Shown: piece after piece, positions 6,278 to 60,228 of the stretch
Position numbering within the stretch: the stretch's first letter is position 1
How the letters are laid out: every line of letters starts with the position of its first letter
Assembly: GCA_030264375.1 (NCBI GenBank)
Contig: JASCQW010000112.1
Location: 58,329,637 to 58,393,481 of the forward strand
Length of the DNA stretch: 63,845 bases
Reading direction: 5' to 3'
Source of the DNA: Carcharhinus longimanus
Lineage: Eukaryota
Program-made: the position numbers and the translations under genes
Notes under the pieces: model-generated
Seen by the model: only the letters and a program-made list of their open reading frames with translations
What the model was told of the DNA's origin: nothing
The model's database searches: none

Positions 6278-9200
6278 GTACGGTACTCCTGTGCACCTAG
6301 ATGTCCTGATGTGGGTATGCCGGCGTTGGACTGGCGTAAACACAGTAAAAAGTCTGACAACACCAGGTTTTAGTCCAANNNNNNNNNNNNNNNNNNNNNN
6401 NNNNNNNNNNNNNNNNNNNNNNNNNNNNNNNNNNNNNNNNNNNNNNNNNNNNNNNNNNNNNNNNNNNNNNNNNNNNNNGTCTCTAAAAGGAGAAGCTGCA
6501 ACAAGACAATGTAAATTCTTGTACACCTGGGCATGCACACTGATTGATGTGGCACAGGAGGCATTAGTGCTTTAGGTGGGAGGAGGAAAGAAACCTAGGC
6601 TCTGTGAGGTGGCAGGGGTGGGGGAGTGGGGATTGTAATGGCAGGGGATCCTCAAGGTAACCCAGAGAGAGCTGGGAGCAGATAGCTTGGGTGGCCAACT
6701 CCCAGAGTCCAGACTTGAGATCCTGACAGCAGTGCCACAAGAAGTCTAACGATCTAATGCAGTGTTAGTGGATTCTTGGGCATTAAATGCTTTCCACAAC
6801 CTTATGTCCAAAATATTATGCAGCCAATAAAATACTTCGAATCCAATTCACAGTTGTGATGTAGAAACGCATTAGCAAGTTGCACATCGCAAATTCCTAC
6901 ATGCAGCAATATGATAATTAGAAACATATGATAATATTTCCACTGCTGTTGGTTTAAATATAAATGTTGGCCTGAACTGCATCGGTCTTTGTCAAAATTA
7001 TGCCAGAGTATCTCTTACATCTATCTGAGAGGGCAAATGGGATTTACTCTCATCCAAAAGTTGGCACTTACAACAATGCAGCACTCCATCACTAATTCAC
7101 TGCAATGTGAGTCCGAATTATTGTGCTCCATTCTCAGAAGTGGGACATGAATGCATTACCTTCTGACTAGGAAGTAAGAGATCTACTGCTGAGCCATCCC
7201 CGACAATGTTTAATTCTTTGATAGTATTGGTGAGGGGGCAGACAGGACTTCTCATATTTATAAAGGTGGGAATTGTGAGCATGCATAATAAACTCATCTT
7301 GCCTGAGGCTATATGTAGTTCTTTTGCCCTCTGGCAGCTTTTGCTGTTTACTACTGGAAATCTGTGTCTTGATGCTCTGTTTCCATAAATTGTTAAGCCA
7401 ACAGGCCTGCGTGAATTAATAAAGTTATCACAAGTGGGTTCACCAGGCAGACTGGGATTTCGCTCTCCAACTAACTAGTTGAACTGTCCTTCATCTTGAT
7501 TGGAAAATATCCATCTCATACAATGGCTGAATCACCAAACATTACGGTTCTTAACAATTCACTATCGTAAATGTCATCTTTATGAAATGTTAATCATAGA
7601 TTGAATATGAATGACTGGCATAGCACAGCACAGGCATTTAATTAGTTAAAAGCAAAAATGGCAGATCATGACCATTAGTTCATTCCCTAAACCATCAATA
7701 ATGGCGCAGTGAACATTTATTACCAGCTCCTTCTATCTGTACTAGAATTCAGAATTAACTTTTGAGTTTAATGAAGATGAATTAATCATTCAATATTAAA
7801 TTATTGGTCATGATTAATCAACTGCAGTCTTCATTAATCATTCCTATTACCCTAGTGTGTTCTGTCAGAAATCTGATCAAAACACATCAATTGCTGCCAA
7901 AGTTAGCTACCTCGGTAGCTAGGCTAGCTCTCTGGTGGCATGTTCTGCCTTGCCTTTGTAATTCACTGGATTAAATTCTGCCAAACAGAAATTTACTGTT
8001 AAAAATATCAAAGGAATCCATTGCTTTCATGGACTGGTGCAAGTAAACAAATAGGACTCCTGCTCCTATGGTTCTGCTATCTGTTCACATCTTCATTGGC
8101 ATGTATTAGCTTCCTTTTCCTAACATCTGTCAGCCTCAAACATTCCCTTGAATCAAATTTAATTAGCAGATAGCTGGACCTAATATTTTTCTGCTCGTAC
8201 ATGGAGTCCACTGATGTGTTTAAGGTAACTCATTGAGTTTGAAAATAGGAATATCTAAATAACGGAACATCCATCTGCGATGTATTTAAAAAATATTAGC
8301 AGCAGTCACAAAGTAAGTGTTCATCTGACTCAATGCCAACCTCTTCAGAAGTCCAGAACAAATGTTATGTGTTAAACAGTAATGAGTTTATATGATAACA
8401 ATCGACTAACTCTTCAAAGGCAAATAACATTGAATAAAATATTCATGGAAGCAAATGTGCATTTAATTTTTGAAAGGAAAACTGAACCTTAACAGTAATC
8501 ATGTGGAAACCATTTGCGAATATCAATTGCTGCGAACATGCATAGGTGCATGAAATGTATGCACAGATTATAGTGTAATCATGTTGACCTTTAAATGTTG
8601 GATGTAATTCCCAATAGCAAAGCTCCATTGTACTTAAAATGCCAATTTGAAAATTTTGAATTGGCCGAATTTCCTTCCTGAGTGTTATCCCATTCAGAAA
8701 TAACAAAGCTGATGAAATCAAGTTCGTTATGGCTGCCTGGAAGATTGCAAAGTGTTATAAAATATTTACAGGTAAGAAACAGGTCAGTCAGTCCAAGAGG
8801 ACTATGTTGATCTTTAAGTTCCACTTGAGCCTCCTCTCACCCTTGTTCATCTAAACCCATCAACGTGTCTCTCTATTCTTTCCTCCTTCATTTGCCCACG
8901 TAGCTTTCTCATACATGTATCACTGCAAGTACGTTAAAAGAAAAAGGAAGAAATAGATAACATGAGAAAGATTTTATTGCAATTGACTCGTTCACAACCG
9001 GGGTGAGAAATGCAGAAAAAAGTGGTGGTGGATAGTGTGATGATAACCCACACTTGTCAATAAAAAGATTTCTCTCTGTTTAAAAGGACCTCAGTCTGAA
9101 TAAATGGAGCTAACGCAAACGGCTGGATTTAATATGGCATTAAAAAGTTGGGAGGGAGCCCGCCATCTAAGGATGAAACTTATGCCCACATCCAGGGAGA

Positions 9201-23413: not shown

Positions 23414-23605
23414 ACAGGTGAGCTGCTGTTGTCTGGACACCACCCCAAATCAAGCGAGATCCGTCGAAATATGAGGATACTCCTCGAACATTGGGAGCAG
23501 CTGAAATTAGCAGCAGCTGCACATGGAAAAATGTTGGAGGGCAACCGGGATTTCTTGGAATTCCTGCAGAAAGTCGAACAGGTTGAGGCATGGATCAGGG
23601 AAAAG
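23414..23605 (+). CDS. SPTBN5: SPTBN5 exon 5, phase 0/0
   Basis: atacag| ... |gtagga; TGELLLSGHHPKSSEIRR...FLQKVEQVEAWIREK. Confidence 0.93.
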
Positions 23606-24416: not shown

Positions 24417-24506
24417 GAGGTGATGATTAATGTGGGCGATGTCGGCAAAGACTACGAGCACTGCTTACAGCTGCAGAAAAAGCTCAACAAGTTCCGAGGA
24501 GCAGGG
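24417..24506 (+). CDS. SPTBN5: SPTBN5 exon 6, phase 0/0
   Basis: aaatag| ... |gtaggt; EVMINVGDVGKDYEHCLQLQKKLNKFRGAG; the GDxGxDxEHC motif is characteristic of betaH/betaV spectrin. Confidence 0.95.
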
Positions 24507-24763: not shown

Positions 24764-25580
24764 CATAGAGTCATAGAGGTTTACAGCATGGAAACATGCC
24801 CTTCGCCCCAACTTGTCCATGCCACCCTGTTTTTAAAACCCTTAAGCTAATCCCAATTGCCTGCATTTGGCCCATATCCCTCTATACCATTGTACCTGTG
24901 TAACTATCTAAATGCTTTTTAAAAGACAAAATTGTACCCGCTTCTACTACTTCTACTACCCACTTCTACCTCTGGCAGCTTGTTCCAGGCACTCACCACC
25001 CTCTGTGTGAAAAAATTGCCCCTCTGGATACCTTTGTGTGTCTCCCCTCTCACCTTAAACCTATGCCCTCTAGTTTTAGACTCCCCTACCTTTGGGAAAA
25101 GATACTGACTATCTAGCTGATCTGTACCCCTCATGATGTTTGGACCTCTATAAGATCACCCCTCAGCTTCCTACACCCCAGAGGAAAAAGTCCCAGTCTA
25201 TCCAGCCTCTCTTTTTATAACTCAATCCATCAAGTTCCAGTAGCATCCTAGTATATCTTTTCTGTACTCTTTCTAGTTTAATAATATCCTTTCTATCATA
25301 GGGTGACCAGAACTACCCAATATTCCAAGTGTGGCCTTACCAATGTTTTGTACAACTTCAACAAGATGTTCCAACTCCTGTATTCAGTGTTCTGATTGAT
25401 GAAACCAAGCATGCCGAATGCCTTCTTCACCACTCTGTCCACCTGTGACTCCACTTTCAAGGAGCTATGGACCTGTACCCCGAGATCTCTTTGTTCTGTA
25501 ACTCTCCCCAACACCTTACCATTAACTGAATAAGTCCTGCCCTGGCTCAATCGACCAAAATGCATCACCTCGCATTTATA
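24764..25580 (-). mobile_element. CR1 LINE 3' end, adjoining a truncated SINE head at 24643-24763
   Basis: KCEVMHFGR..EQRDLGVQVHSSLKVESQVDRVVKKAFGMLGFI..YKTLVRPHLEY; KTRGHRFKV; ctctatga tail repeats. Confidence 0.9.
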
Positions 25581-25809
25581 CTTGTAGAATAAGTTCCCCA
25601 TAATTAGTGATAGAATTCCTGTTGTACTTTATATTCAGGGTAGAATTTGAGTTCCTCTATGTGAAGAATTACTGTCTCTCACTATGGGTTCTAACTTGTG
25701 TTTGTTGTAATGATTGCAGAGTAAGGAGCATCGGTTAGACAGAATTATAAACAATTTGCAGCGCTCTATCCAACCGGCTCATATTCCACACGAGCTTCTA
25801 CCTTTATTG

Positions 25810-26003
25810 AAATTGTTGTAATTTTTCACCATTTAAACAATAGTCCATTTTACTATTATTTCTCCCAAAGTGGATAACCTCACACTTGCCAATGTTATAC
25901 TCCATCTGCCAGATCCTCGCCCACTCACTCAGCCTACCCAAATCTCTCTGCAGACTTTCCGCGTTCTCCACGCAACTTGCTTTCCCACTCATCTTTGTGT
26001 CAT
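25810..26003 (-). mobile_element. CR1 ORF2 fragment
   Basis: LQRDLGRLSEWARIWQMEYNIGKCEVIHFGR. Confidence 0.85.
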
Positions 26004-26088
26004 TAGCTGAGCTTCTGGATTAATAGTCTCGAGATAATACTACCAGGCCATTGCCTCCCCTAAATTCAGAGCAATATCAGGAGATTAC

Positions 26089-26142
26089 CTTGTAACCTTC
26101 ATCTCCCGGTTCCCCTCGATCTCCGCGGGGACCCCCGGGGCC
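26089..26142 (-). pseudogene. Isolated 54-nt collagen triple-helix exon (GPGGPRGDRGEPGDEGYK), resembling clade C fibrillar collagens COL24A1/COL27A1; orphan or nested
   Basis: - strand: cattcttctctttcacag|GGC CCC GGG GGT CCC CGC GGA GAT CGA GGG GAA CCG GGA GAT GAA GGT TAC AAG|gtaatc; six exact Gly-X-Y triplets, phase 0/0. Confidence 0.7.
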
Positions 26143-28239
26143 CTGTGAAAGAGAAGAATGTGTGATATATCGTGTAAAGATGTCACTTATACCCAATCAC
26201 TGGAGATTAAACCATTCCTTCCGCTTATATTTGTTGTTGTCAGTTTGACTGTCTGAGTACATTTGAATCCCTCAGTGGTTGAAGAATTGTTTTTCAAGTT
26301 GAAGTATAATTACTTTTCAATATCAGGTCCAGGTTACATTTTGAGTTTTAGGCTATCAGTTTTTCATGAAAAAAACTTCCCAAGACATCAGATCATTCCA
26401 GATGCTTATTTTAATAAGAAACATTTTTCGAGCTTTAGCTGCTTTCCGATTGGATCCAAAATAATCTTGCTGGATTCACACAGCCAGCTACTGGAAGGAC
26501 CTGAGTGAGAGGGTGAGACTCGTGCTCGAGAAGGGAGTGACACTGGAACCAGTCTGAATGCTGGATCACGCTGGAGAGGTTGTCCGGTTCATCCTGTCTC
26601 CCCATTGCTACGAGTGTCCCATGGCACAACTGTGTCAGAGATTGAGTAGGAGGCAGGGGGAGAACGAGAGCAGGACTCATGGAAAAGGACCTTCCCGGGC
26701 GGGGGGGAATACAAGGAGCAACTGGCCGGAGATTGGGAGAGAGAAGACCCAAGCCGCCTCCTTTGTGATAGCAAGAAATCTCACAACACCAGGTAAAAGT
26801 CCAACAGGATTATTTGGAATCACGAGCTTTTGGAGCGCCGCACCTTTATCAGGTGAGCGAGTGTGCGGCTCGCCAAAATACGGAACAAGCGAATGATTAA
26901 CAGGTGACCAGCAACACTTCCTCAGGACCGGGCCAATGGGGGCAGGAGGTCAGCCCACTGACAGCCAATCAGAGGCTGGAAAACACTTTTGTTCTTCAGC
27001 GCCACTGGGAGGGTGGTGGCTGCTGCAGGAAGTGCACCCACTGGAGGTCCAGATTCACAGAGCAAGCTGGTCCACAGATTGGCAGGAGGGGTTTCGAGGG
27101 GTGGGGTGTTGTGAGGATGGGGTTGTAGGAGGGTCAGCAGCAAGAGGAGTGGGGTGGATTTCAGTGGGTCCCTCCCATCCCAGTGTCAAGTCCCTCAATC
27201 AGACACTGAGTGCCTTGAATCCACCCTCCGCCTTCCCACCTGAGTAAATACTGCCCCCACCTCCAAACTTGGCATATGGGAGTGTGGAAAATACCATCCT
27301 ATATTACAGCAAACAAACTCTTTTTGCTCAGCAGAGTCTGTTTAAACAATGCACAAAGCAACAAGTCTATAGCGTCTAATTAAGGAAAGGCTTGGAAGAA
27401 CAGCAAACAGAACTCAGGGCCATGACTGCAACAACTTCTCCAGATAAAAAGCTGGGCCATTTCTCTGGAAAAATGCAGTGAGTGGAGGATAGTCAGATCG
27501 AATAATTCCCAGACACTCAGCAACATGGTCTCCTGTTGTGATTGAGGCTGGAATCACCCGATCATCTCCAATCTGGGTGGGAACAGCAGTGACACCAACA
27601 CTGAACTCAATCTACAGGAGGTTTTGCGGCGCAGTGAACAGCCAGCAGCGTCTCTGCCTCTCTACCTGGAAGCTCCGGGTTCGAGTAGGTGATGAAGGGA
27701 GATGTGTTTCTGGGTGGGGTGAAGCAGATTGAATAGCGATCTAAAATCCTTCCAAAGTGAGAGCGGGAGAGATTCCTGGTCAGCCTTTGGTGGAAAGAAG
27801 ATTGAAGAGAGCTCCAACATGCATGTAGGGGGTGTGTTGACATAGCAACACGGATACTGAGCGAATTGCAACACATCACCAACCCCAGTGTAAAAGCAGC
27901 TCTCTCACACCTCTCTGTGATATGCCTCCATTTCTATCTCCTTCTGACCATTTGGAGGCCTGTCAATTTCTAAGCTCCACCCCTATGGCCCATTTGAGGT
28001 GCTTTCTAACACATCCTCCCTCATGACTGCAACGATGGTCTCTTTTTATCAATAATGGAATACTCTTCTCTCACATCCCTCCCGATCAGGCCTGAACCTT
28101 CTCTACGCTGGAACTTTGAGTTGCTGTCCTTCTTTCATGCCGATTAACGCTCTAAATTTACTTGCTTTACCAGACAGCCTCCTTGATTAAAAGTGACGCA
28201 ATTTAGCCTCCCAATCCTCCCATGATCGTGCTCATGTGT

Positions 28240-28480
28240 TTGCTTGCTGGATTGATATCGATTTCCTTCTAAATTTGACCGAACCCTTGCTCACAATGTT
28301 ACATTTATTCTGTGTCCCGTTTCCTTGCCAAATTTGTTTAAAACCTCCCCAGCAGCACGAGCAAATCTCCCAGCGAGGATAGTGGACCTGCACGGGTCCC
28401 ACCTGCCCCAAAAACTGCCCCAATGATCCATAAATTGAAAAGCCCTCCCTCCGGCACTGTCCCTTTAACCGCACATTCAC
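28240..28480 (-). mobile_element. CR1 ORF1 (esterase-like) remnant
   Basis: VNVRLKGQCRREGF.. resembles CR1 ORF1 NxWLxxWCRREGF; frameshifted. Confidence 0.5.
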
Positions 28481-28599
28481 CACACCAGCACATTAATGGC
28501 TGTCACTTTCCTTCTCTGATGGGATGTGGGTGTCACTGGCTGGGCCGGCATTTGTTGCCCATCCCTAAATTGCCCTTCATATGAGCGTCTCATTCGATC

Positions 28600-29165
28600 A
28601 TTTTTACCAGGATGTTGCCTGGTTTGGTGGGAAGGTCTTATGAGGAAAGGCTGAGGGACTTGAGGTTGTTTTCATTAGAGAGAAGAAGGTTACGAGGTGA
28701 CCTAATTGAGGCATACAAGATGATCAGAGGGTTAGATAGGGTGGANNNNNNNNNNNNNNNNNNNNNNNNNNNNNNNNNNNNNNNNNNNNNNNNNNNNNNN
28801 NNNNNNNNNNNNNNNNNNNNNNNNNNNNNNNNNNNNNNNNNNNNNATTAACTAAGTCAGTCCTGCCCTGGTTCAATGTACCAAAATGCATCACCTCACAT
28901 TTGTCTAAATTAAACTCCATCCTTCATTCATCAGCCCACTGGCCCAATTGATCAAGATCCCTTTGCAATTGGAGATAACTTCCTTCACTGTCCACTACGC
29001 CACCAATCTTGGTGTCATCTGCAAACTTACTAACCATGCCTCCTACATTCTCATCCACATCATTAATACAAATGACAAATAATAGTGGACCCAGCACTGA
29101 TCCCAGAGGCACACTGCTGGTCACAGGCCTCCAGTTTGAAAAGCAACCCTCTAAAACCACCCTGT
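28600..29165. mobile_element. Two CR1 ORF2 fragments in opposite orientation on either side of an N gap
   Basis: + strand: YEERLRDLRLFSLERRRLRGDLIEAYK; - strand: GSVLGPLLF..SKFADDTKIGG..LQRDLDQL. Confidence 0.85.
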
Positions 29166-31037: not shown

Positions 31038-31156
31038 GACTTGACGGTGGACGATGCTCACATCAAGACTATCAATAGCCTGGCCACCCGGCTGGAGAAA
31101 CAGAACAAAGATGACACTGGGACTATTCAGCGACGCAAGCAGCAGCTGAATGAAAG
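31038..31156 (+). CDS. SPTBN5: SPTBN5 exon 7, phase 0/2
   Basis: ttgtag| ... |gtcagc; DLTVDDAHIKTINSLATRLEKQNKDDTGTIQRRKQQLNE(R). Confidence 0.93.
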
Positions 31157-43116: not shown

Positions 43117-44085
43117 TGGTCTGACCAGAATTAAACACAGTACTCCAGACGCAGTCCAACCAGAACGAAACACAGTACTCCAGATTCAATTCAACCAGAA
43201 CGAAACACAGTACTCCTGATACAGTCCAACCAGAACGAAACACAGTACTCCTGATACAATTCAACCAGAACTAAACACAGTACTCCTGATACAGTCCAAC
43301 CAGAACGAAACACAGTACTCCTGATACAGTCCAACCAGAACGAAACACAGTACTCCAGATGCAATTCAACCAGAACTAAACACAGTACTCCTGATACAGT
43401 CCAACCAGAACGAAACACAGTACTCCAGATACAGTCCAAGCAGAACTAAACACAGTACTCCTGATACAGTCCAACCAGAACGAAACACAGTACTCCAGAT
43501 ACAGTCCAACCAGAACGAAACACAGTACTCCAGATACAATTCAACCAGAACTAAACACAGTACTCCTGATACAGTCCAACCAGAACAAAACACAGTACTC
43601 CTGATACAGTCCAAGCAGAACTGAATACAGTACTCGAGACCCAGTCTAACCAGAACTAAACACAGTACTCCAGACTCGGTGCAACCAGAACTAAACACAG
43701 TACTCCATACACAGTCTAACCAGAACTAAACACAGTACTCCATACGCAGTCTAACCAGAACTAAACACAGTACTCCAGACACAGTCCAACCAGAATGAAA
43801 CACGGTACTCCAGACATGGCCTGACCAGAACTAAACACAATACTCCAGACACAATTTAACCAGAACTGATTACAGTACTCTAGACCTGGTCTAACCAGAA
43901 CTGAATACAGTACTCCAGACAAGGTCTAACCAGAACTGAATATAGTATTCCAGACATAGTCTAACCAGAACTGAACGCAGTACTCCAGACACAATCTAAC
44001 CAGAACTAAACACAGTACTCCAGACAAGGTCTAACTAGAACTGAACACAGCACTCCAGACACAGTCTAACTAGAACTGAACACCA
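43117..44085. repeat. 35-bp minisatellite, about 27 units, CR1-derived
   Basis: ccagaacgaaacacagtactcctgatacagtccaa repeated. Confidence 0.95.
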
Positions 44086-50813: not shown

Positions 50814-51318
50814 ATCTAAATATCTTTTGATCTTGGGGCAGTGAATATAATGTGCCTATTTTGCCATCTCTCCCTACCACACCCGGCAGGGAACTGGCAA
50901 CTAATGACACAGAAGAGCTTTCAATTTCTTTTGAGATAAACCAATGAGTTGCAGCCTACGTTTGTGAATGATCTGACTGAGCACAACATTCCTGGGCTGT
51001 ACACCCAATTTGACACAGATGGGCCTGATAGCCCCCCTGTTGGGATGGAGATTTCAAGACTCCATTTGGGTACACCCTGCGGCCCACTGCCCTGGGGAAA
51101 GGCTAAGGGNNNNNNNNNNNNNNNNNNNNNNNNNNNNNNNNNNNNNNNNNNNNNNNNNNNNNNNNNNNNNNNNNNNNNNNNNNNNNNNNNNNNNNNNNNN
51201 NNNNNNNNNCTGGGGAAAGGCTAAGGGGTGGTTCTGTAGGTGCATCTCCTGATTCTGCTGATGTGCAGGGAGCTCTGGTGTATGAATCATTAACATTTCC
51301 TTCTCTTTAACCTTGGAG

Positions 51319-51575
51319 GCCCTGAACTTCCAGCGAAGCATCGATGATGTGGAGAATTGGCTGAGTGAGGTGGAAAAGCAGCTGGATGATCCTGAAAAGG
51401 GAACAGACCTGGTGTCTGTGAAGAACCTTCTCAATAAGCAGCAAGATCTGGAAGAAGACATCAGCAGCTATGTAGAGAGGATGCAGGGTTTACTCGATCA
51501 GTCCGAGGAGTTTATCCGGGAAAATCATTTCCTGGCTGTGGAAATTCGAGACAGGGTCGGCAACGTACTCCAGAG
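51319..51575 (+). CDS. SPTBN5: SPTBN5 exon 18, phase 0/2, GAG acceptor
   Basis: ccttggag| ... |gtaaat; ALNFQRSIDDVENWLSEVEKQL...HFLAVEIRDRVGNVLQ(R); the 5' boundary could instead be 51334. Confidence 0.88.
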
Positions 51576-60024: not shown

Positions 60025-60228
60025 AAAAAGTCTGACAACACCAGGTTTTAGTCCAACCNNNNNNNNNNNNNNNNNNNNNNNNNNNNNNNNNNNNNNNNNN
60101 NNNNNNNNNNNNNNNNNNNNNNNNNNNNNNNNNNNNNNNNNNNNNNNNNNNNNNNNNNGACTAAAACCTGGTGTTGTCAGACTTTTTACTGTGTTTACGC
60201 CAGTCCAACGCCGGCATACCCACATCAT
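60025..60228. mobile_element. Penelope-like repeat family B, inverted pair around an N gap; other copies at 6308-6378 and 14546-14633
   Basis: aaaagtctgacaacaccaggttttagtcc / gactaaaacctggtgttgtcagactttt. Confidence 0.65.

Follow-up and report, generated by a model that had tools for sequence, protein, structure and literature searches.

A single collagen exon in a spectrin intron

The window analysed here is a stretch of 63,845 bases from Carcharhinus longimanus (C112:58329637-58393481), which contains 11 N gaps and belongs to an assembly of 2.68 Gb in 68,774 contigs. It raises the question of how one well-formed collagen exon came to lie, in antisense orientation, inside an intron of a spectrin gene. 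The exon and its host intron comprise the following features:

26089-26142, minus strand: Gly-X-Y exon of 54 nt in phase 0, identified as the one absent from COL24A1 on C81 between 2716421 and 2728816
26143-26162, minus strand: polypyrimidine tract and CAG splice acceptor, read directly
26083-26088, minus strand: splice donor GTAATC, read directly
24417-24506, plus strand: spectrin-gene exon upstream of the intron (AG/GT bounds, open frame; a short exon with no Pfam Spectrin match)
31038-31156, plus strand: spectrin-gene exon downstream of the intron (AG/GT bounds, Pfam Spectrin)

The two plus-strand exons flank the collagen exon, and their junction is in phase 0 on both sides. Pfam Spectrin matched the window at 23420-23605 (E 1.5e-6), 31038-31154 (E 0.015) and 51286-51573 (E 2.8e-17), and an ESM Atlas search with the host exon likewise returned a spectrin repeat, without a gene name. 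Judged from sequence, the host is a plus-strand spectrin-repeat gene, presumably SPTBN5, as the preliminary description has it; the analysis itself reaches the level of Pfam Spectrin only.

Translation of 26089-26142 on the minus strand gives GPGGPRGDRGEPGDEGYK, six Gly-X-Y triplets encoded by 54 nt in phase 0. The exon is preceded by a pyrimidine tract ending in TTTCACAG and followed directly by GTAATC, so that the sequence and its translation agree with the preliminary description of a 54-nt minus-strand exon with a polypyrimidine acceptor and a GTAATC donor. The six frames of the window contain seven runs of at least four Gly-X-Y triplets, and no other run has AG and GT at its borders. The pattern AG-(GGN7)x6-GT matched once in the window and in none of 100 dinucleotide shuffles, which ruled out a chance match to a collagen exon.

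A second AG/GT-bounded Gly-X-Y exon, looked for by eye in the preliminary description and not found within the window, was also absent when 50 kb on each side were added (163,845 bases in all, 23,483 of them N), and none of 44 matches to the collagen C-propeptide domain (COLFI) fell on C112. In a genome search for a parent locus, the DNA at 26040-26340 matched only itself in the 2.68-Gb assembly, and no second full-length match to 26870-28590 was found there; these searches ignore common words, so their match counts are lower bounds. Consequently, no parent copy is assembled, and the surroundings hold no collagen gene.

COL24A1 and COL27A1 lack the corresponding exon

PMC8887668 describes two clade C collagen genes in jawed vertebrates, col24a1 and col27a1. 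We identified the plus-strand locus on C81 as COL24A1 and the minus-strand locus on C148 as COL27A1 by sequence similarity. The top match of the N-terminal collagen exon on C81 was whale shark COL24A1 (68%), and the best named matches of the COLFI exon on C148 were COL27A1; one COLFI exon of the assembly showed 96% identity to a catshark protein. Protein searches and a cluster look-up of nine proteins returned no full-length shark COL24A1 or COL27A1.

Both loci lack the exon that comes after a 57-nt interrupted exon. On C81, the neighbouring exons 2716365-2716421 and 2728816-2728869 flank a hole of exactly 18 residues relative to all three COL24A1-type proteins (skate 1469-1486, mouse 1209-1226, catfish 1182-1199). 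Two gaps, of 2,720 and 6,425 N, follow the preceding exon, and a six-frame scan of C81:2713292-2728815 yielded no candidate for the missing exon. The COL24A1 span on C81 is 44% N, and further exons are missing there as well. On C148, the neighbours 5235234-5235290 and 5224170-5224223 correspond to frog COL27A1 1120-1138 and 1157-1174; residues 1139-1156 have no counterpart, and the interval separating the neighbours includes gaps of 2,469 and 3,266 N.

The window exon has the properties of the COL24A1 exon that follows the 57-nt interrupted exon in skate and mouse (54 nt, phase 0, an exact fill of 18 residues) and differs from it in place, being assembled on C112 and not in the gene on C81. 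It is the assembly's only copy of the exon that COL24A1 on C81 lacks. The proposed origin in a clade C collagen was borne out.

The window exon is assigned to COL24A1

Peptides filling this slot were typed by the preceding exon, and proteins without that motif were excluded. The window peptide is identical to skate COL24A1 1469-1486 at 13 of 18 positions, with the common start G-P-x-G-P-R-G, and to the paralogous, same-slot frog COL27A1 1139-1156 at 14 of 18. Its BLOSUM scores are 66-80 against three COL24A1 rows and 67-85 against 18 COL27A1 rows; because these ranges overlap, the raw score alone does not separate the two genes. Two positions favour COL24A1. Position 5 of the window exon is Pro, a residue shared with skate COL24A1, and position 15 is Glu, shared with mouse COL24A1 (three COL24A1 rows only); the exon has neither the Asp5 found in 16 of the 18 COL27A1 rows nor the Pro15 found in 17 of them.

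A genome-wide search with the slot pattern gave six matches (as did the reversed control), two of which were spliceable collagen exons; the other four were not. The second of the two is another orphan 54-nt exon, GPVGDRGDRGDPGDPGYI, on the plus strand at C184:12685063-12685116. It lies on a 3,157-base contig between gaps and is alone in 70 kb, of which 40 kb is N. This orphan is identical to the frog COL27A1 slot at 16 of 18 positions, carries both Asp5 and Pro15, and scores 77-96 against the 18 COL27A1 rows versus 57-71 against the three COL24A1 rows; it clearly reads as the COL27A1 version of the slot exon. Two orphans thus stand for two empty slots, and since the one on C184 suits COL27A1, we assigned the window exon to COL24A1. 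Our first assignment of the window exon to COL27A1 was dropped, because COL24A1 also lacks the exon and the C184 orphan is the better COL27A1 fit.

The putative displaced piece ends in LINEs that continue at the COL24A1 gap

The surroundings of the exon comprise the following features:

25352-28745, minus strand: putative displaced COL24A1 intron-exon-intron piece of ~3.3 kb, delimited by repeat edges and uniqueness
24766-25579, minus strand: LINE 3' fragment, subfamily B, adjoining unique DNA beyond 25580
25815-26060, minus strand: high-copy repeat stretch whose 5' piece is fused near 26005 to a LINE piece
28600-28745, plus strand: LINE fragment, subfamily A, which stops at the N gap and whose tail borders the C81 gap on the left
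28746-28845, no strand: 100-N scaffold gap (N run) at the right end of the displaced piece
28846-29165, minus strand: upstream half of the subfamily B LINE native to the spectrin intron (Pfam RVT_1, E 7e-7)

The LINE at 24766-25579 is presumably of CR1 type. In two natural copies of this LINE, the parts corresponding to 24766-25520 and 28846-29165 are directly adjacent (distance 1), so the displaced piece interrupts one host LINE. The two LINE parts share a 57-base overlap that is 88% identical; this is the level between copies of subfamily B, and the overlap is therefore not a target-site duplication.

Each end of the piece falls within a high-copy repeat, and both repeats resume at the donor gap on C81. 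The 6,425-N gap of C81 has a subfamily A tail at its left edge (94.8%) and a subfamily B body at its right edge (86.7%). The LINE on that right side is 84% identical, over 591 columns, to the window LINE at 24766-25579, with the match starting at window position 25351. The C81 tail occurs 184-233 bases past the window break in 14 of 19 natural subfamily A copies, and four of the other five run into N. Both LINE orientations at the C81 gap are those required by the strand of the exon. Among 170 gaps of at least 50 N with clean flanks in the 714 kb fetched, the A edge docked at two, the B edge at four, and both at one, the 6,425-N gap of C81; this test was designed, and its repeats chosen, after the fit had already been seen. 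Subfamily B is common, with 36 matches in the 714 kb. When the flanks of the C148 and C81 gaps were searched for direct overlap with the piece, identity stayed at repeat level and no identical overlap was found.

The docked piece amounts to ~3,626 bases versus a gap estimate of 6,425 N. Our guess is that the missing length may be hidden at the unbridged repeat junction near 26005. In the stretch at 25815-26060, we take the 5' piece to be SINE-like and the second piece to be a LINE. A short shared motif lies at the fusion near 26005, and no bridge occurs among the contigs listed. The sequence at 25815-26060 may be collapsed, possibly as a second collapse.

Independent sequencing runs

Four of 24 listed runs, from four studies, were compared over 25540-27760, a stretch that contains no spectrin exon. 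The exon and its unique flanks were present in all four, and the contigs listed end at repeats. In all four, contigs that include the 5' end of the subfamily B fragment (from 25550-25567) continue into the unique DNA past 25580. This junction is therefore real, which would put the left switch point within the LINE, between 25352 and 25549; the LINE at 24766-25579 would then be a chimera of the spectrin-intron copy and a COL24A1-intron copy. At position 26135, all four runs have A versus C in the assembly, changing codon 3 from Gly to Val, a residue that is also found at this codon in frog COL27A1 and in the C184 exon. The C of the assembly could be either a base error or a private allele.

Other displaced collagen exons in the assembly

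The COL27A1 slot exon stands alone on C184; on C148, the slot itself contains gaps but no exon. When the C184 orphan was docked into the 3,266-N gap of C148, no bridging copies were found on either side; the repeats are compatible by eye. A further exon, a COL24A1-type C-propeptide (COLFI) exon covering profile positions 118-186, lies on the minus strand at C98:25756359-25756562. It shows 82% identity to a partial catshark protein versus 56% to the COL27A1-type one, is absent from C81:2755000-2780000, and has no Gly-X-Y exons around it within 100 kb. At least three clade C collagen exons are thus displaced in this assembly, on C112, C184 and C98.

Two loose COLFI exons covering profile positions 44-82 were also seen, at C128:13356493-13356606 and C18053:1274-1393. 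Since neither C81:203-205 kb nor C177:13.57-13.58 Mb, both COLFI loci, has a match for positions 44-82, the two loose exons are probably collagen exons that are likewise displaced or were left unplaced. On C184, 12717911-12718882 (minus strand) is a single-exon open frame of ~320 residues that by eye resembles a rhodopsin-class G-protein-coupled receptor.

Origin of the lone exon

The lone exon is very probably the product of a repeat-mediated misassembly that set a COL24A1 exon into the spectrin intron. This reading rests on six observations: the DNA has a single copy, the COL24A1 slot is gapped, both ends of the piece dock there, the host LINE is split, other collagen exons are displaced in the same assembly, and in four runs from four studies the listed contigs with the exon and its flanks end at repeats. 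On the other side, no read or contig was seen to span either junction at either locus, and the docked piece is shorter than the gap estimate. We infer that the relocation occurred in the assembler and not in the animal. Starting in the spectrin intron, contig extension or a gap-filling step would have entered the subfamily B LINE, switched to a related subfamily B copy in the COL24A1 intron, read ~3.3 kb through the exon and halted in the subfamily A LINE; the scaffolder would then have added 100 N and continued with what was left of the host LINE. The animal itself would splice the exon normally into its COL24A1 mRNA and have a single unbroken LINE in the spectrin intron. Repeat-mediated chimeric contigs and gap-fill errors occur in short-read assemblies. 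The present case shares with them a single-copy foreign piece with both ends in high-copy LINEs, N gaps both at the donor site and on one side of the piece, and other cases in the assembly; no difference from such errors came to light.

A real, recent duplication, which we consider quite improbable, would have copied ~3.3 kb of COL24A1 into the spectrin intron with the exon and its splice sites intact. The route would be LINE-to-LINE ectopic recombination or templated repair; the assembler would then have merged the two near-identical copies at the spectrin locus, leaving the parent with a gap. Such a merged pair would likewise give one assembled copy and a parent gap, and the left end does lie at homologous positions of two related LINEs. 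The right end, however, is an unassembled gap and not a junction, the assembly displaces two further clade C exons, and there is no target-site duplication; moreover, among the contigs listed for the four runs, no second long contig covers the unique segments. LINE 3' transduction and templated insertion are known to put a genomic piece with its intron flanks at a new site beside LINEs, and the spectrin intron shares this arrangement. It differs in that there is no second assembled copy, no target-site duplication and a gap at the donor site; no parent copy is assembled, and the parent slot is an N gap able to hide a collapsed copy. Of the three origins put forward in the preliminary description, the assembly chimera fits; the captured fragment would call for a parent copy, of which none is assembled, and the COL24A1 slot is an N gap.

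The same misassembly could also have drawn the exon from COL27A1 on C148, where the equivalent slot is empty too. We regard this as highly improbable. The frog residues that the window peptide matches at 14 of 18 positions fall exactly between the C148 exons, where 3,266 and 2,469 N lie, but the C184 orphan suits that slot better in identity (16 of 18), scores and Asp5/Pro15, and the ends of the piece dock at C81 and at no C148 gap tested. Scarcely credible is the remaining proposal, that the exon is part of a very long collagen gene running antisense across the spectrin gene, perhaps a third member of clade C. In its favour, the exon retains intact splice sites and is kept in all four runs; however, 164 kb hold no other Gly-X-Y exon, even within 50 kb of the window, no COLFI match among 44 is on C112, and the neighbouring exons are on C81. 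The slot pattern, too, finds two collagen exons for two genes that both have the slot empty, and PMC8887668 gives two clade C genes for jawed vertebrates.

Under the misassembly reading, the lone antisense exon as a feature is most likely neither real nor new biology, and as biology it is most likely without importance. What it reveals is that the assembly puts exons of long, repeat-rich genes into unrelated chromosome-scale scaffolds, and claims of lone exons, gene loss or exon shuffling from this genome call for a check of the donor locus first. The duplication, if true, would offer an example of LINE-guided exon capture, with the exon intact and the event datable.

Other features of the window

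Both strands of a tandem repeat array at 43325-43725 carry open frames. One short high-copy repeat borders each of the 100-N gaps at 6379-6478 and 60059-60158, which is consistent with breakage of contigs at this repeat.
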